UHGV virus genome: UHGV-0163620
Strand: one strand, 5' to 3'
Length of the DNA: 20,711 nt
Origin: a virus
Part shown: in pieces, positions 1,033-20,711 of the stretch
Layout: each line of letters begins with the position of its first letter
How positions within the stretch are numbered: position 1 is the stretch's first letter
Position numbers and translations under genes: made by a program
Notes under the pieces: generated by a model
Database searches by the model: none
Told to the model about the DNA's origin: nothing
The model's input: only the letters and a program-made list of their open reading frames with translations

Positions 1033-1048
1033 TGCGACCACGGTCGCA
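1033..1048. other. sopC-like 16-bp inverted repeat TGCGACCACGGTCGCA (candidate SopB/ParB centromere site), copy 1
   Basis: 7-bp inverted arms around a 2-bp centre; same 16-mer or its reverse complement at 4043, 9238 and 11681; differs from the F-plasmid sopC core TGGGACCACGGTCCCA (quoted from memory) at one position per arm. Confidence 0.6.
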
Positions 1049-4022: not shown

Positions 4023-4042
4023 GCTTTTTCGTTTTTGTGCTG

Positions 4043-4058
4043 TGCGACCGTGGTCGCA
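4043..4058. other. sopC-like 16-bp inverted repeat TGCGACCGTGGTCGCA, copy 2 (extends to a 24-bp palindrome 4039-4062)
   Basis: Exact reverse complement of copy 1; lies about 21 bp upstream of the candidate late promoter -35. Confidence 0.6.
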
Positions 4059-4064
4059 CAGCTT

Positions 4065-4527: not shown

Positions 4528-4692
4528 AATATCCTCCAAATTCATATAGTTAGTGGGTTATTACCCCTCAATGACACGAACTGTAACTCTGCCAAACGAA
4601 CACATCCAGTGTTATTTTTCGCTTTTTAGTGAAATTTTTAATTTGCGTTGTTTTCTTGTTTTGGTGTATTTTATGGATATGGAGGCTATAAT

Positions 4693-5004
4693 ATGTTTAA
4701 CGTGATAACCCACCCTGCAGCACTGGATGAACTGCTTGAACTACCAGATGATTTGCGAGGTCGCATGACCAGATTAATTGAGCGACTGGAGAAAGAAGGC
4801 AACAAACTGAAGATGCCCCATAGCCGTGTAATAGGTGGAGGGCTTTTTGAACTACGAGTAGGGGATAAAAACATCGCAAGAACGCTGTACGCCTACGCGA
4901 CTGGTAACGAAATTTATCTATTGCATGCATTTGTAAAAAAGACACAGAAAACACCGGTGAAGGCTATCGAAATCGCCAGAACTCGCCTGAAGGAGATGAA
5001 CTGA
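4693..5004 (+). CDS. RelE/ParE-superfamily toxin, HigB-2 / Gp49-like (DUF891)
   Basis: About 103 aa with family-typical fold signature; toxin-first order; GGAGG 7 nt upstream of the ATG at 4693; stop overlaps the next start (TGATG). Confidence 0.7.
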   Translation: MFNVITHPAALDELLELPDDLRGRMTRLIERLEKEGNKLKMPHSRVIGGGLFELRVGDKNIARTLYAYATGNEIYLLHAFVKKTQKTPVKAIEIARTRLKEMN

Positions 5005-5291
5005 TGAAAGCGAAAGGCATCCCGTTTAACGAAGTAAAAGAAAAACTCCTCAACACTCCAGAAGCCGTCAAAGGATATGAAGAGGCCGACAAAGAGCTGG
5101 AGATGGTCGAAATGTTATACGAAATGAGGGAAAGAGCAGGTTTAACGAAATCAGCTCTGGCTGAACGAATGGGGTTGCGACCGTCAGCCATCAGCCGCCT
5201 GGAAAGCAATCCTTTAGGGGCAAGTATGAAAACTTTGGCTAAATATGCTCATGCCTGCGGCGCAACCATCGATATTCGCGCTGTTTATTAA
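5004..5291 (+). CDS. HTH XRE-family antitoxin (HigA-2-like)
   Basis: 95 aa with C-terminal helix-turn-helix; translationally coupled to the upstream toxin. Confidence 0.7.
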   Translation: MKAKGIPFNEVKEKLLNTPEAVKGYEEADKELEMVEMLYEMRERAGLTKSALAERMGLRPSAISRLESNPLGASMKTLAKYAHACGATIDIRAVY

Positions 5292-5333: not shown

Positions 5334-5537
5334 TCAATGATGTGAACGCTCAACAGCGATAGTTTGCTGACAATGCTGGGCAATCTCTCGCGACATGTTG
5401 ATGAGTCGTGAAACCTCACCAATATGTAGGCTGGCTTCTGGAGAAGCCAGGGTGACGCTAACCAGATCCAGAACGGCGTCAATATCTCTTAAATTTGAAT
5501 CGAGTTGTTCAAGAGTTGATACGGCTGCTTCAGACAT
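5334..5537 (-). CDS. LexA-controlled small protein, 67 aa, candidate SOS-inducible antirepressor (AntC-like)
   Basis: ORF begins 39 bp downstream (minus strand) of a near-consensus LexA box; identity as an antirepressor is inferred from N15 biology recalled from memory. Confidence 0.5.
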   Translation of the reverse strand: MSEAAVSTLEQLDSNLRDIDAVLDLVSVTLASPEASLHIGEVSRLINMSREIAQHCQQTIAVERSHH

Positions 5538-5575: not shown

Positions 5576-5591
5576 CTGTATAAAATTACAG
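5576..5591. promoter_or_regulatory. LexA (SOS) box CTGT-N8-ACAG
   Basis: TACTGTATAAAATTACAGGG at 5574-5593 matches CTGT(N8)ACAG with an AT-rich spacer; overlaps the candidate -10 region for the 5334..5537 gene. Confidence 0.7.
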
Positions 5592-5871: not shown

Positions 5872-5885
5872 CGTGACCAGTCACG
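5872..5885. other. 14-bp palindrome CGTGACCAGTCACG (second dyad-site class), copy 1
   Basis: Identical 14-mer at 11927-11940 and its reverse complement at 16951-16964; abuts the Shine-Dalgarno of 5620..5862 and spans the stop of 5881..6207. Confidence 0.55.
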
Positions 5886-6207
5886 CTTTGAGCGCAAGTT
5901 TCAGCCTCGTGGTTGTAAGGTGGCATGACCCTTCGCCATCAAAAATGCATTCTGAAACAGGCATTTTTTGACCACATCGCGGGCAAGTAGTAGATAGCTG
6001 CTTCTGCAGCTCCTTATAGTTTTTCCTGATCAGCAAACCAATGACTTCGTTCTCCGAATATGGAACTCGCCCTGGTCTACGCAATACACAAATTTCCCCC
6101 AACATACGTAACTCGTCAGGTTCTAGAATCCAGTCCCGTCTTGATGTGCCTTCCTTCTTCAACCGTTCCCTGCGTCTCCTTTGCCGTTCTGCCGGTGTCA
6201 GCGCCAT
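5881..6207 (-). CDS. hypothetical protein, 108 aa, possible zinc-ribbon (CPRCG...C...C)
   Basis: ORF with GGAGG Shine-Dalgarno before the ATG at 6207; basic N-terminus and cysteine cluster. Confidence 0.5.
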   Translation of the reverse strand: MALTPAERQRRRRERLKKEGTSRRDWILEPDELRMLGEICVLRRPGRVPYSENEVIGLLIRKNYKELQKQLSTTCPRCGQKMPVSECIFDGEGSCHLTTTRLKLALKA

Positions 6208-9230: not shown

Positions 9231-9531
9231 TTTCTTGTGCGACCACGGTCGCACCCTCTCTGATTTCCAAGTAACGCTTAATCCAAAGATTTTCTATATG
9301 CTTATTACCTGGCTGATTTGATAAATACCAATCGGCAATTACAGACTGCTTATTACTATCTGGTCGTGTCCTGTAACCACAAGTTGGACACCAGATAACA
9401 TATTCATTTCTTACCCCCGAATACCTTAATTCTGGCTTCGACGGTTTCCTGAACATAACTTGTTTACAAAGACAGAATGGCACTTCCTGCCCGATGGCGT
9501 TTGATGATTTCACTGCGCTTCTCCGCCGCAT
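9211..9531 (-). CDS. zinc-ribbon protein, possibly Lar-like restriction alleviation family (tentative)
   Basis: CxC ... CxxC pattern (VPFCLCK ... WCPTCGYRTRP ... ADWYLSN) loosely resembling Lar/RalR small proteins as recalled from memory. Confidence 0.4.
   Translation of the reverse strand: MRRRSAVKSSNAIGQEVPFCLCKQVMFRKPSKPELRYSGVRNEYVIWCPTCGYRTRPDSNKQSVIADWYLSNQPGNKHIENLWIKRYLEIREGATVVAQENENNAI
9238..9253. other. sopC-like 16-bp inverted repeat TGCGACCACGGTCGCA, copy 3
   Basis: Identical to copy 1; 8 bp upstream of the ATG at 9230 and inside the 3' end of ORF 9211..9531. Confidence 0.6.
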
Positions 9532-10476: not shown

Positions 10477-11073
10477 ATGAAAACACGAGGCGAACGACTG
10501 AAAGCACGCCGTTTAGAGATGAAGCTGACGTTGCGAGAAGTTGCTGAGGCTGTCGATATCTCTATAGCAGGCGTCCAAAACTTAGAACGTGGCGACGTAA
10601 TGCCGTCACTGGAGATAGGTATTGCCCTGGCTAAGTGCTTACGCAAGCCAGTGCATTGGGTGCTATATGGGACAGAATATGACCCTGATCGCATTCCTGT
10701 TATTGGCACAACTGAAAGTGGGCCGGATGAAGAGTGGAAGCCGGGACAGGTTCCAAATACTGAGCGATTCCTGCCATTCATCAGCCAGCGCAATACTGTG
10801 TATGCGTTAACTATCAGCAATCTTACGCAGGGAAACTATCAGCCAGGCGATTTTCTCCTGGTCGATTCTGCGCTGGAACTGGTCCCCGGCGAGGATGTTC
10901 TGGTTCGTGATACTGCAGGAAATATCACTATCCAGCGCCTGGCCCGTTTTGATGATGAAAATTACTATCTGGATGGAACAAACTCACAACGCGCCATCTT
11001 CAGGAAAAGCGATCTTGAATTTGTTCACCAAATAGTCGGAACGATCAAATCATTCATGGTTGAGGGTAGATGA
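10477..11073 (+). CDS. cB: prophage repressor, CI/CB-like (N-terminal XRE HTH, C-terminal S24-peptidase-like domain)
   Basis: N-terminal HTH MKLTLREVAEAVDISIAGVQNLERG; C-terminal beta-rich domain alignable by eye to lambda CI but without an obvious GxSM serine motif or catalytic lysine. Confidence 0.75.
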   Translation: MKTRGERLKARRLEMKLTLREVAEAVDISIAGVQNLERGDVMPSLEIGIALAKCLRKPVHWVLYGTEYDPDRIPVIGTTESGPDEEWKPGQVPNTERFLPFISQRNTVYALTISNLTQGNYQPGDFLLVDSALELVPGEDVLVRDTAGNITIQRLARFDDENYYLDGTNSQRAIFRKSDLEFVHQIVGTIKSFMVEGR

Positions 11074-11318: not shown

Positions 11319-14300
11319 ATGACATTAAACGATTTCTATGCGGATCGCTTTGGCAGCGATCCGTTCTCGCTAATTGAAGCAGCACGGGATGAACTAACCG
11401 AGCTGGCACAGATGGCTGGTATCAACTGGCCTGCCTGTTCCGACAACATCCAACTCAACCCTCGCGGGGGGGTTGAGCGTTACTCTTCATACAATAAAAC
11501 ATCTCCAGAAGCTCTCGAAAAGAGCCTGAAAGGACGCGTAGAAATTTACTCCAGGCTGGAACACAGCAAAGGGATTGATTACCCGTTCATTAACTTCGTC
11601 CATAAAGGCAGCGATGCTGGCTCATGGAGCGGTTTCTCCTTCCTGTTTTCTGAATATCGCCGTGAGCAACAACGGAATAATGCGACCGTGGTCGCACAAC
11701 CGGAAGAAGAACGGGAAAGAATAGAACGTCAGGCCGAAGCACGTCGTCGCCGTGAAGAACAAAAACGAATTAATGACCTGAAAAACAACCAAATGGACCA
11801 TGAACGTTTGCTGGGATGGCTGGCATTCCACAGCGCGTGGGAACATGCTCCGGCTGAAGACGGCTCATGGCCATATGCGATTAAAAAAGGTATTCGTGAC
11901 GTTTTTAGTTCATGTGATGTGCGTCGCGTGACCAGTCACGACAGTGCGAAATGGAGCCGGGGGTCAACCACATATATGGCTATCCCTCTGGCTCACCTGG
12001 ACGGTCGTTATGATGGTCGTATTGTGGGTTGGCAGCGAATCGACAAACAAGGTGGGAAATACCAGACCAGCGCAGTAACCAGCGGCGATTTCGTCGGTGC
12101 CTGCTTTGTTATCGGTGAGCTGAAAGGGGCGCAAAACATCGCTGTTACAGAAGGTTTTGCTACTGGTGCATCCATCTGGCTTGCCACGAAAAAAGATAAA
12201 CGCTTTGACGCTGTGGTTGTCGCTGTATCCGCTAACAACATGGTTCATGTTGTGGAACAACTGGTAAACATGTACCCGGCGGCAAAAATCACCTGCGCAC
12301 TGGATAATGACCGGAAATCTGCCACAGAAGGAAAAGGGAATACCGGCCTGCGGACTGGCTATGAAATCTTATCGAAATTCAACGATGTCCGCTGCGTCTA
12401 CCCAACTTTTGAAGACGATCCGCAAATGGAGTGCAGTGACTTCAACGACCTGCACAAACTACGTGGACTTCGTGAAACAGCACGTCAACTATTTGCAACA
12501 GCAAACCGCCTGAAAACCGGCACTGATTTGCTATCTCTGACGCTCAACCGCCTGAAGACAATTAAGCGGGATAACCGTCGTACTTTTGCCAAAGAGCTGC
12601 TGAGAGCGGTGGATATTGGCATGCTAACCTGTCCGGTTCCTAACAGTCCGTCAGATTTATTTAACATGTTCTGCATCGTTCTGCGTGAAATGGGACTGGA
12701 AAATATCTATCGTGCTACGGTAAAAGACCACATTGCCCGTCGCCTGAATAAAAAGTGCCGTATTGCCCAGGCTCCGCGCTCTTTCAGCGAACGCATAACT
12801 GATCCCAATAAACGACCTCAACATATCACCTATAAGCGTTTTGAAACTTCGGTAATGACCGATGATGTCCTGAAGTACGTGCAATCACTACAGGGGATAG
12901 TCATCGTCCGTGCTGGTATGGGTTCCGGCAAATCTACTGGATTGTTACGACCGTTAATGCATAGCTCAGAACGTGGTATCTCTGTTGCTCACCGTGTCTC
13001 CCTTATTGGTGGCCTGTGGGAAATGATGACAGAAGGAAAAGGTGTAAAAGCCGATATCCTGCACTATCAGGATCCTGGCTATCAGGAAATGGCTCCATAC
13101 GCCAGTAAACTGACCATCTGCATAAACTCGATTGTTAAAAACTGCTGGCAACCGTTGATGCGCCAGCACGACTATTTTGGCTTTGACGAGGCCACACAAG
13201 GGCTACGTGCCGTTCTTTCCGGTCGGGCTATGGAAAACCCGGTGGCTGTATTCAATACGCTAATTGACGCGCTGGCCAGAACGGAACAACACCCAATCAT
13301 GGTGGATGCTGATGCGAACGATCTGCTGGTTGACCTGGCTGAACTGGCTATGAAACGCCGTGAAGAACTAGGTTTACCGGCATGGCTGCAGATCCACGTA
13401 ATTGAATTACCTGTTGATGTTCGCAACCGCGAAACAGGTGAGCCAATCCGGGTTTTTTATACAGAAAAAGATCGCATCATGACCGAGGTGGTGAAAGCTG
13501 TATCGGATGGCGAAAAAATTATGTTGGCCACCGACAGCTCCACCTTTGCAGAAGATGTGACCGCCACCCTGAGAATGCATTTCCCTGGCAAGAAATTTCT
13601 GTGCGTAAACCAGAAAAGCAAACAGGATGAAGAAGTCGATGCCTTTACCAGCCAGCCAAAAGTAATGGTGATGAAATACGATGGACTGATCTACAGCCCG
13701 TCGATTTCCTCCGGGGTGTCATTTGAGAAAAAACATTTTGACCGTCATTTCGGCATGTTCTGCGGTGAAGTTGTGCCCAGCGACGCAGTGCAAATGCTAC
13801 GCCGCGACCGTACAGCAAAAGAATTTATTATTGGCTTTGATAAAGCCCGTGCAAAACGCGAGACTGATCCGCAAAAAATAGAACGTGCATTCGCCCAGGC
13901 ATTACTTGCTACCGCAGGCATGAACGGTGAACTGACGGATGTCATTTTCGATGGCGACCGTATATCAATGGGGGTAGCCAATACCGACTTTACCAGGATG
14001 AAAATTAAAGCAGCCGCAATTGAAGCGTCTGCGCGTAACGACTACGCCAGCAACATGATCTGCATCATGCACAGCGACGGTTATAAGGTATCACCATTAG
14101 CTACCGATTATGCCGCGAACGATTTTGGTAAAGAGCTGCGCAAAGAAGCGCGGGATATTGTGTGGGAACAGACGCTGGATCTGCACCTCAATACAGAGAC
14201 ACCAGAAGAATCAGAGCGTGAAGAACTACTAAAAAAACGTGCGCTAACGCTTGAAGAACAGGCAAAACTGGTCCGCTGGGATATTGAGAACGAACTGAAA

Positions 14301-15302
14301 TTACCGGTTGAAGAAGGCACACTGAAATTCTATTTCGATGGCGCTCGAGACAAAATTCGCCGTTATGAAACGATGCTGCTTGATGAAGTCACAGCCCGTC
14401 GTTATGACCGTGAAGAAGCGGCTATCAATTTTACATACGCATATCGCCAGACCGGACAGTGGCAATATTTTGTGGTGACCGCGATGACACGCGAGCAGGC
14501 TGATGATGTATTCAAAGCGAAATTTCCGGGAATAATCGACTACAAGGTAAAAGCCACCCCAGCTGTTGAGGTCGGCATGCGCGGATTCTATGCGCTTAAA
14601 TCAGCAACTCTCCGGCAGTATTTTATCGACTGCGGTATCGACCCTGAAACTATGACTGGCGAAGCGACGCAGGAACGCCTTAAGTTCGCTCGAGATAATC
14701 TCATGACAGCAGAACGCCGTGACCTGTTGAATAACGTTCTGCGCATTGGTGGTTTTATGACACCAAAAGGGAAGCCTAAAGTGCCGGAAGCACTGTTTAA
14801 AAACATCTGCGACTCTCTCGGCCTAAAAACAGGAAAACGTCGCGGCAGAGATGGCGATAAGCGCCCGACATTGCGTTTTGTTGAGCCTGAGTCTGTAGCA
14901 TTTATGCTTGATATTCTTGCGCAACGTCAGGAGGACGGTATGACGTTGAAAGCTCGCAAGGCAGAAAAATCAACGACCGAAGTGGATCGCGATTTGTCAT
15001 TAAATATATATATGAATGGTGAAACGAGATCCACAAACACGGAGGAACAGGATCCCCCTCGTTCAGCTATATCACAGGCTTTGGCTGTATTGCCGGTGGC
15101 TGTTCCTGAGTCCTGGGCGATGAGTGCTCTGCCATCAGCCGAACTGGAATCTATCAGGGGGTGGTCAGTTGACAGCATCGCATACACGTTTGCAGCCCTT
15201 TATATGACTGAGTTTATGGATTTGCTGTCCGGTCATGAGATTAAGTTGCTGAAGGCTTTTATAGGCCCACGACATGCCAGCGATGAGTTTTGTGTAGTTT
15301 AG
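11319..15302 (+). CDS. repA: RepA-like multidomain replication protein (primase + helicase/origin-binding), 1327 aa
   Basis: Toprim-like segment (VTEGFATGAS ... ALDND); Walker A VRAGMGSGKST and Walker B FGFDEAT; size and architecture match N15 RepA as recalled. Confidence 0.85.
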   Translation: MTLNDFYADRFGSDPFSLIEAARDELTELAQMAGINWPACSDNIQLNPRGGVERYSSYNKTSPEALEKSLKGRVEIYSRLEHSKGIDYPFINFVHKGSDAGSWSGFSFLFSEYRREQQRNNATVVAQPEEERERIERQAEARRRREEQKRINDLKNNQMDHERLLGWLAFHSAWEHAPAEDGSWPYAIKKGIRDVFSSCDVRRVTSHDSAKWSRGSTTYMAIPLAHLDGRYDGRIVGWQRIDKQGGKYQTSAVTSGDFVGACFVIGELKGAQNIAVTEGFATGASIWLATKKDKRFDAVVVAVSANNMVHVVEQLVNMYPAAKITCALDNDRKSATEGKGNTGLRTGYEILSKFNDVRCVYPTFEDDPQMECSDFNDLHKLRGLRETARQLFATANRLKTGTDLLSLTLNRLKTIKRDNRRTFAKELLRAVDIGMLTCPVPNSPSDLFNMFCIVLREMGLENIYRATVKDHIARRLNKKCRIAQAPRSFSERITDPNKRPQHITYKRFETSVMTDDVLKYVQSLQGIVIVRAGMGSGKSTGLLRPLMHSSERGISVAHRVSLIGGLWEMMTEGKGVKADILHYQDPGYQEMAPYASKLTICINSIVKNCWQPLMRQHDYFGFDEATQGLRAVLSGRAMENPVAVFNTLIDALARTEQHPIMVDADANDLLVDLAELAMKRREELGLPAWLQIHVIELPVDVRNRETGEPIRVFYTEKDRIMTEVVKAVSDGEKIMLATDSSTFAEDVTATLRMHFPGKKFLCVNQKSKQDEEVDAFTSQPKVMVMKYDGLIYSPSISSGVSFEKKHFDRHFGMFCGEVVPSDAVQMLRRDRTAKEFIIGFDKARAKRETDPQKIERAFAQALLATAGMNGELTDVIFDGDRISMGVANTDFTRMKIKAAAIEASARNDYASNMICIMHSDGYKVSPLATDYAANDFGKELRKEARDIVWEQTLDLHLNTETPEESEREELLKKRALTLEEQAKLVRWDIENELKLPVEEGTLKFYFDGARDKIRRYETMLLDEVTARRYDREEAAINFTYAYRQTGQWQYFVVTAMTREQADDVFKAKFPGIIDYKVKATPAVEVGMRGFYALKSATLRQYFIDCGIDPETMTGEATQERLKFARDNLMTAERRDLLNNVLRIGGFMTPKGKPKVPEALFKNICDSLGLKTGKRRGRDGDKRPTLRFVEPESVAFMLDILAQRQEDGMTLKARKAEKSTTEVDRDLSLNIYMNGETRSTNTEEQDPPRSAISQALAVLPVAVPESWAMSALPSAELESIRGWSVDSIAYTFAALYMTEFMDLLSGHEIKLLKAFIGPRHASDEFCVV
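11681..11696. other. sopC-like 16-bp inverted repeat TGCGACCGTGGTCGCA, copy 4, inside repA coding sequence
   Basis: Exact 16-mer encoding residues A-T-V-V-A of RepA (codons 122-126). Confidence 0.6.
11927..11940. other. 14-bp palindrome CGTGACCAGTCACG, copy 2, inside repA coding sequence
   Basis: Exact copy of the 5872-5885 site; encodes R-V-T-S-H-D of RepA; 246 bp downstream of sopC-like copy 4. Confidence 0.55.
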
Positions 15303-16947: not shown

Positions 16948-16967
16948 CCCCGTGACTGGTCACGGGG
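16948..16967. other. 20-bp perfect palindrome CCCCGTGACTGGTCACGGGG containing copy 3 of the 14-bp dyad site (16951-16964)
   Basis: Reverse-complement orientation of the 5872 and 11927 sites; lies between the lipoprotein stop and the immA-like promoter, about 20 bp upstream of its -35. Confidence 0.55.
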
Positions 16968-16987: not shown

Positions 16988-17017
16988 TTGACGTGTGCGT
17001 CGTTTTGGAGGTAAAGT
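16988..17017 (+). promoter_or_regulatory. candidate promoter of the immA-like antirepressor operon
   Basis: TTGACG (16988-16993), 18-nt spacer, TAAAGT (17012-17017); judged by eye. Confidence 0.35.
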
Positions 17018-17078
17018 CACCTCGCTGCGGTAAATCCCGCAGTCGGGACTTCGCAATCCTGGCAAAACGAAGCGCACA

Positions 17079-17100
17079 ACACGCGCCAGCGTGTTTTTTT
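17079..17100 (+). terminator. intrinsic terminator/attenuator in the immA-like leader
   Basis: 6-bp stem ACACGC/GCGTGT with 4-nt loop followed by seven T (17094-17100); about 77 nt downstream of the candidate start site. Confidence 0.55.
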
Positions 17101-17131
17101 GTGTGTACAGACCTGCGCATATCCGAATTAT

Positions 17132-17211
17132 GGTGGCTCAGGTGGGGCTGACTTCGGTCGGGCCGGTTTCTTCGTTTACCGGTATTGCGAACCCCGCCTG
17201 GGCTACCACCA
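17132..17211 (+). ncRNA. tRNA-like structured RNA, candidate c4/CA-type antisense regulator (RNase P substrate-like)
   Basis: 5' GGUGGCU pairs with 3' GGCUACC (7 bp, two G-U) followed by ACCA; internal GAC-UUCG-GUC and CCGGU-N10-ACCGG stem-loops; two blocks complementary to 17221-17240 downstream. Confidence 0.4.
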
Positions 17212-17266
17212 ATAAAGAGATTCGCAACTCTGGTGGTAGCACGACCAATAAAACGGAGTGCATACC

Positions 17267-20657: not shown

Positions 20658-20711
20658 ATTAGCACATAATTTCCCATTATACGCGCGTATAATGGGAAAT
20701 TATGTGCTAAT
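20658..20711. other. telomere resolution site (telRL-like), perfect palindrome of at least 54 bp truncated by the window end
   Basis: All 27 base pairs around the centre (between 20684 and 20685, core TATACGCGCGTATA) verified complementary; located 165 bp upstream of telN. Confidence 0.85.

Follow-up and report, generated by a model that had tools for sequence, protein, structure and literature searches.

The repA gene of the virus genome UHGV-0163620 quite probably unites four elements: an N15-like RepA initiator, a SopB centromere repeat inside the gene, a predicted operator of a gp46-like phage protein and a candidate replication origin toward its 3′ end. The analysed stretch, called the window below, is 20,711 nt long and comes from an N15-like linear phage-plasmid of the genus Ravinvirus, of which it forms the right arm. 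RepA and the centromere were already known, as they are textbook N15 biology in a close relative. The only new lead is a modest one and comes from comparative data. It is a second palindrome, dyad class 2, together with the gp46-like protein that may bind it. If these assignments are correct, one coding sequence carries at least two, and probably three, DNA-level functions (centromere, regulator site and origin). The separate functions are visible as islands of suppressed synonymous change in repA.

Dyad class 2 and the gp46-like protein

Three exact copies of dyad class 2 and one match with two mismatches were found in the window, against 0.17 expected (coordinates in Table 1). The mismatched sequence, at 4896-4909 inside the toxin gene, is probably a chance occurrence. 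The pattern GTGAC-NN-GTCAC is present in exactly three copies each in N15, phiKO2, the window and the closest complete plasmid (NZ_OY757103.1, 99.9% identical), and the copies occupy the same three syntenic places. About 25 more relatives from IMG/VR and GTDB have copies at these places wherever the retrieved stretch extends. In N15 and phiKO2, the palindrome in repA stands at the same offset as in the window (about 610 nt). Of the other two copies, that at 5872 precedes gp47 and the antC-like open reading frame (ORF) with a perfect LexA box, and that at 16951 is centred about 67 bp upstream of the transcript start of the isrK/C4 anti-repressor (immA-like) locus. Neither the N15 nor the phiKO2 record annotates class 2, and its sequence was not found by full-text literature searches.

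We aligned the codons of 22 distinct full-length repA genes, in which 85% of the third positions are variable. The longest invariant run in the 3984-nt gene was 11925-11942 (CGCGTGACCAGTCACGAC), which holds the class-2 copy, and all six third-codon positions within it were invariant. At the two positions outside repA, the arms do not change, but TG, GG or CC is found in the centre and the flanks are variable. Fixed arms, a drifting centre and the invariant run in repA together point to a DNA site for a dimeric protein rather than to codon preference or an RNA stem. Class 2 is a real conserved site, apparently undescribed, that is probably bound by a small phage regulator.

It could be argued that the repA copy was kept only for the residues R-V-T-S-H and their favoured codons, and not as a DNA site. 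R202, R203, V204 and H207 are indeed invariant even in PY54, which has no palindrome there. However, the six third positions of the run stayed fixed in the same 22 sequences in which most others vary, and the same 14-mer stands at two syntenic non-coding or junction positions in every relative and recurs in unrelated phages. No sequence was seen that had R-V-T-S-H in scrambled synonymous codons plus gp46 and the other two copies. We regard an explanation by codons and protein as extremely improbable.

An RNA hairpin, acting in translational coupling at the gp46 stop or as a stability element of the repA mRNA, would agree with the TGA stop of the gp46 family lying within the first arm and with the ribosome-binding site of the next gene directly after it in N15-like elements. 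Nevertheless, the stem would have only 5-6 bp and the loop 2-4 nt, the arms are invariant with no compensatory changes seen, and a variable centre between fixed arms is typical of the site of a dimeric protein. The contexts also disagree with this explanation. In epsilon15-like phages, a terminator follows the site instead of a gene, and the copy upstream of the Pa-like promoter and the copy after terL are in different transcriptional contexts. An RNA element is therefore very unlikely.

The candidate for a protein that binds class 2 is the 108-aa gp46-like protein. It had no match in Pfam or NCBIfam. Homologues with 33-38% identity were found in epsilon15-like Salmonella and E. coli phages, in Pectobacterium ZF40, in one Citrobacter phage, in one Klebsiella phage and in many Vibrio phages. 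An AlphaFold2 model built with 45 homologues had a mean predicted local distance difference test score (pLDDT) of 89. From the N-terminus, it runs from a basic helix through an extended segment and a pair of helices to a Cys-rich knuckle, in which C75, C78 and C95 are invariant, and ends in a further helix. The model suggests a ribbon-helix-helix-like fold with a Cys-rich knuckle as a candidate assignment.

The motif follows this gene family into other phages. In epsilon15, TL-2011b, ZF40, Omnitron and ST512-KPC3phi13.3, the gene's stop codon overlaps GTGACATGTCAC or directly adjoins it, and in Vibrio K303 the sequence GTGACACGTCAC lies 226 nt downstream of the gene. We surveyed 82 complete IMG/VR loci of the epsilon15 type with a gp46 homologue (758 kb). 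The motif begins one base before the gp46-family stop in 73 of the 82 loci and is at most 300 nt away in 77, and its centre varies among AT, AG, GT, AC, CT and GG. Another 62 copies were present in these loci, where fewer than one was expected, and most of the extra copies listed are 2.2-3.6 kb downstream of the copy at the stop. From the motif at the gp46-family stop, the lack of any motif copy in those RepA relatives that have no gp46-family ORF (Erwinia L036, LSJC7 L037 and the right arm of PY54; profile search) and the ribbon-helix-helix-like model, we infer that the gp46-like protein binds class 2 as a ribbon-helix-helix dimer.

Several observations weigh against this interpretation. The N15-like sequences represent only three or four deep lineages, and the invariance statistics thus overstate their independence. 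In Yersinia 42.18, a phage with a gp46-family gene, no motif is present within 3.2 kb, and the RepA relative from Xenorhabdus (L035) has a motif at the edge of the locus with no gp46 ORF detected. gp46 and the motif are linked by association, which is not a proof.

No fixed promoter geometry was found beside the class-2 sites; a -10-like hexamer lies 2-5 nt downstream at several non-coding copies, inconsistently.

In the epsilon15-like loci L086-L165, the first motif copy stands at the gp46-family stop, before the small terminase gene. In L087, the sole locus inspected (motif at 5336 and 7537), the second copy directly follows the large terminase gene, and terS-terL there lies between the two.

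If gp46 is the binder, it resembles Arc, Mnt, CopG and the antitoxins of toxin-antitoxin systems, which likewise are small, have a strand-helix-helix core such as that predicted here and recognise a short palindromic target with a variable centre. Unlike in those systems, the class-2 site is at the 3′ end of the regulator's own gene, not at its promoter, and extra copies are found in repA and, in epsilon15-like phages, after terL.

We also considered that class 2 might be bound not by a phage protein but by MatP, the host protein of the Ter macrodomain. Its site matS is GTGACRNYGTCAC (PMC6907758). The half-sites of E. coli matS, GTGAC and GTCAC, are identical to those of class 2, several dispersed copies exist, and MatP has a ribbon-helix-helix DNA-binding core, as predicted for gp46. 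However, matS is a 13-bp site with a 3-nt centre, whereas the spacing in all of the more than 150 copies of class 2 is 2 nt (12 bp), which also led us to reject class 2 as a matS site. The motif is tied to the gp46-family stop codon across phage types, which argues for a partner encoded by the phage. A homology between gp46 and MatP was likewise rejected, as an hhalign comparison of the gp46 family with E. coli MatP gave a probability of 0.3%; MatP has a coiled coil, and gp46 has a Cys-rich C-terminal knuckle instead. Binding by MatP seems unlikely.

Finally, class 2 might be a site of RepA itself, such as an iteron, an auto-operator or a part of the origin, because it lies inside repA and N15 replication starts within this gene (PMC2847241). 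However, epsilon15-like phages, ZF40 and Vibrio phages have the motif in abundance, yet a search of the phage collection placed none of them among the homologues of the RepA N-terminus. PY54 and other RepA relatives lack the motif, and a conserved origin-like element exists elsewhere in the gene. There is little to make a RepA site credible, and we give it hardly any weight beside an operator of the gp46-like protein.

RepA and the SopB centromere repeat

The sequence-only reading had described a RepA of 1327 aa that combines Toprim-like primase motifs with a Walker A/B NTPase and fits N15 RepA, and all of this was borne out. The ORF exists on the plus strand with an ATG start. The family phrog_4913 ('replication') covers aa 1-1315 with an E value of 0. 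In the N-terminal part, DNA-primase families of PHROG matched aa 120-399 (E 8e-36). The Pfam family Toprim_3 scored 22.5 bits at aa 274-383, under its cut-off of 27.2, but the Toprim glutamate E278 (EGFATG) and the DxD motif (D329-N-D331) are unchanged in the alignment from the window RepA to PY54. In the following part, the NCBIfam family CyRepA1 matched aa 525-1034 with 254.3 bits (cut-off 200, E 3e-75), and the Pfam family Herpes_ori_bp matched aa 522-674 above its cut-off. The reading had also named a primase C-terminal domain among the targets of a domain search. The primase-like and helicase families appeared in these searches, but a separate domain of that kind was not detected in RepA. 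A PDB sequence search with RepA gave herpesvirus origin-binding proteins as its best match, which was not significant (E 0.09). Judged from these matches, RepA combines a Toprim primase-like domain with a Walker A/B helicase domain in one chain, whose C-terminal part is divergent.

N15 RepA (gp37), phiKO2 gp35 and PY54 RepA share its length, its domain order (Toprim primase-like, then helicase) and its position beside cB. Window RepA differs from N15 RepA in sequence, with 57-92% amino acid identity per 100-aa bin and a mosaic in the last 100 or so codons. With PY54 RepA, identity is 52% across the 420 aligned aa of the N-terminus. At the nucleotide level, the window shares 99% identity with N15-like phage-plasmids deposited for E. 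coli. Over the repA region, nucleotide identity was 99.0% with Escherichia phage YDC107_1, 94.5% with PhiR46_1 and 74-78% with N15, phiKO2 and many Klebsiella phage-plasmids. E. coli plasmid pS159-3 matches the first 782 nt of repA at 99.9% identity, and 214 plasmid records in all contain a match.

Dyad class 1 occurs in four exact copies in the window, where 0.00 were expected by chance; N15 has four and the closest complete plasmid five. The centromere sites IR1-4 of N15 are given as GTGCGACC-NN-GGTCGCAC (PMC7205306 Table 4), and the window palindrome meets the same consensus, (G)TGCGACC-NN-GGTCGCA(C). Read as the reverse complement, the flanks of N15 IR1 (TTCTTCTTCCGGCT...CCATTCCGTTG) equal the stretch of N15 repA that aligns to 11660-11720 of the window. 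The repA copies of N15 and phiKO2 stand at the same codon position as in the window, with the outer bases GAGCGACC in N15 versus ATGCGACC in the window, and the phiKO2 record annotates a 'putative plasmid partitioning site' there. Across the 22 repA genes, all four third-codon positions in the core GCGACC..GGTCGC are invariant. In one lineage, the centre changed from GT to AC, by which the dyad was kept and Val became Thr in RepA. By its sequence and position, the class-1 dyad in repA appears to be a SopB centromere repeat equivalent to N15 IR1.

For N15, both the binding of SopB and the stabilisation of plasmids have been demonstrated (PMC2847241, PMC7205306). The N15 centromere site 'lies within repA', and sopAB in trans stabilises plasmids of this kind (PMC2847241). 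The N15 IR sites are bound by N15 SopB, which is 49% identical to F SopB (PMC7205306). The sopC sites of the F plasmid and N15 IR1-4 are likewise palindromes of 16-18 bp with 7-bp arms and a 2-bp centre. In contrast to the tandem array of F sopC, the window copies are single and dispersed over the right arm, one of them within a gene. The sopAB genes lie outside the window; in NZ_OY757103.1, SopA is 93% and SopB 75-79% identical to the N15 proteins. Unlike the window, PY54 lacks both dyads, and the class-1 site was absent from the examined 22-kb PY54 stretch that holds repA.

The novelty of a centromere in repA was overrated in the sequence-only reading. It is not new, as the site is the IR1 published for N15 (PMC7205306 Table 4; PMC2847241) and is annotated in phiKO2. 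Both palindromes had been placed within the first 620 bp of the ORF; this is exact for class 1 (offset 363-378), but class 2 (609-622) ends 2 nt beyond. The proposed coupling of the replication gene to partition or regulatory binding stands in a divided form, with class 1 as a partition site and class 2 as most likely a regulatory one, both conserved at the DNA level within the coding sequence.

Two relatives have a broken repA. In Klebsiella phage Kpn_R1 (L007) and a contig labelled 'Limoniibacter endophyticus' (L034), the gene is split over several frames, a deletion over residues ~191-229 removes the class-2 site, and 6-7 centromere repeats are carried. We left both out as intermediates because of the broken repA and the class-2 deletion. 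An enterobacterial N15-like element in a Limoniibacter-labelled contig suggests contamination.

Candidate origin and proposed model

Bidirectional replication of N15 initiates within repA (PMC2847241). The sequence-only reading had implied a tie between such an in-gene origin and the 5′ dyads, but no link between them is visible: the sole origin-like conserved element in the gene begins some 3.66 kb after the ORF start. No origin was revealed by scanning repA alone for composition and repeats, and the element came to light only by the comparative codon analysis, in which 14966-15035 is a second island of suppressed synonymous change. The protein around it is the most divergent part of RepA. 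Two GATC sites (14985 and 15028) lie inside the element and a third at 15051, 17 nt downstream; the right arm has the form (A)CG(C/A)GATCCAC. A GATC-rich inverted repeat with an AT-rich core is also found about 3.7 kb into repA in Xenorhabdus L035, Erwinia L036, LSJC7 L037 and PY54, with different arm sequences. The papers on the N15 and PY54 origins reportedly place the origin in the 3′ part of repA. We conclude from the comparison that replication most likely starts at this GATC-rich inverted repeat (14982-15034), toward the 3′ end of repA, rather than at the 5′ dyads.

Over its last 100 or so codons (~14900-15302), RepA shares only 66-69% identity with relatives that match it at 91-100% elsewhere in the protein. 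This drop indicates a recombination breakpoint near the candidate origin.

By eye, the arms at 14982-14993 and 15024-15034 (GTGGATCGC / GATCCACAA) resemble DnaA boxes, whose consensus is TTATCCACA, and overlap GATC Dam sites.

Synonymous change is also suppressed at the start of repA (11319-11365, ~45 nt), where 33% of the third positions vary. A hairpin with 9-bp arms, CGGATCGCTTTGGCAGCGATCCG, is located there at 11341-11363, although other lineages have it only in imperfect form, and may serve as a target in translation initiation or for an antisense RNA.

In the model that we propose, the RepA initiator gene would be transcribed downstream of the gene for the CB repressor, which controls repA (PMC4997575). 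The four dispersed IR repeats would be used by SopA and SopB (a partition ATPase/ParB pair) to segregate the low-copy linear plasmid, a function established for N15. The class-2 copy in repA would be an operator of the gp46-like ribbon-helix-helix protein, with another copy ending the gp46 gene itself. On the N15 map, gp46 belongs to the rightward early region, after cro and Q, which suggests that it is likely made once repression by CB is lifted. The regulator could then connect repA with both anti-repressor loci (the gp47-antC region and the immA-like locus) and might activate, repress, block transcription through repA or bridge the sites.

If this were true, operators in repA and beside the anti-repressor operon would couple plasmid replication to the lysis-lysogeny switch, and the three sites might be looped or bridged in a MatP-like manner. 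It is possible, though we hold it as doubtful, that GTGAC-NN-GTCAC and the gp46 family with its ribbon-helix-helix core and Cys knuckle form an undescribed regulatory module that is widespread in phages, occurs in more than 500 stretches of IMG/VR and includes a coupling of replication to lysis-lysogeny. The pJAZZ linear cloning vectors have N15 repA as their replicon (PMC2847241). As N15 repA has the class-2 site at the same offset, these vectors presumably carry an unrecognised putative protein-binding site.

Other features of the window

The gene order of the window agrees with that of N15: lysis and methylase genes, a toxin-antitoxin pair, early genes, Q, cro, cB and repA. After repA follow, as in N15, small ORFs, the anti-repressor locus and the protelomerase gene, and a telomere palindrome ends the window.

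Table 1. Positions of repA, its domains, the two dyad classes and associated features in the window.
Feature	Position	Strand	Basis or context
cB-like prophage repressor gene	10477..11073	+	directly upstream of repA
repA ORF, ATG start, 1327 aa, N15 gp37 RepA homologue	11319..15302	+	ORF call, phrog_4913, nucleotide matches
Primase-like region, aa 120-400	11676..12518	+	PHROG primase families
Toprim, aa 274-383	12138-12467	+	E278, D329xD331
NTPase/helicase region, aa 525-1034	12891..14420	+	CyRepA1, Herpes_ori_bp
Walker A AGMGSGKST, aa 532-540	12912-12938	+	motif
Walker B FGFDEATQ, aa 620-627	13176-13199	+	motif
Dyad class 1 TGCGACCRYGGTCGCA (TGCGACCGTGGTCGCA) in repA	11681..11696	.	ORF offset 363-378, codons 122-126, A-T-V-V-A
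Dyad class 1 copy	1033..1048	.	exact copy
Dyad class 1 copy, extended 24-bp palindrome 4039-4062	4043..4058	.	exact copy
Dyad class 1 copy 3′ of Q-like gene	9238..9253	.	N15 IR2, phiKO2 annotated site
Dyad class 2 CGTGACYRGTCACG (CGTGACCAGTCACG) in repA	11927..11940	.	ORF offset 609-622, codons 203-207, R-V-T-S-H
Dyad class 2 copy	5872..5885	.	overlaps gp46-like TGA stop, just 5′ of gp47-like ribosome-binding site
Dyad class 2 copy	16951..16964	.	between small ORFs after repA and anti-repressor operon
gp46-like gene, 108 aa, candidate class-2 binder	5881..6207	-	phrog_536 'transcriptional regulator'
Candidate origin, arms GTGGATCGCGAT / (A)CGAGATCCAC around AT core TAAATATATATATG	14982..15034	.	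suppressed synonymous change

At its end, the window has a perfect palindrome of 54 bp (27+27 nt, 20658-20711), which is related to telRL of N15. N15 telRL is an imperfect palindrome. Since the perfect dyad stops exactly at the edge of the window, it seems that the telR hairpin was read through, its tip being at 20684/20685. In the GenBank record of YDC107_1, the whole right arm is repeated in inverted orientation after the protelomerase gene, which is probably an assembly fold-back.

The toxin-antitoxin pair is located at 4648-5291 on the plus strand and comprises a Gp49/RelE-ParE-type toxin (PF05973) and an HTH_3 antitoxin, comparable to N15 genes 49/48. A perfect LexA box, CTGTAATTTTATACAG, lies at 5576-5591 on the minus strand, upstream of a 67-aa ORF on the same strand (5334-5537) that matches the PHROG anti-repressor family phrog_10889. 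This ORF is presumably the counterpart of the SOS-controlled AntC of N15.

An isrK-like Hfq-binding RNA (17024-17099) and a C4 antisense RNA (17126-17213) were both detected with Rfam above the gathering score. A promoter-like site lies upstream at 16988-17017 and a terminator at 17078-17095, and together they make up an immA-like anti-repressor control region.

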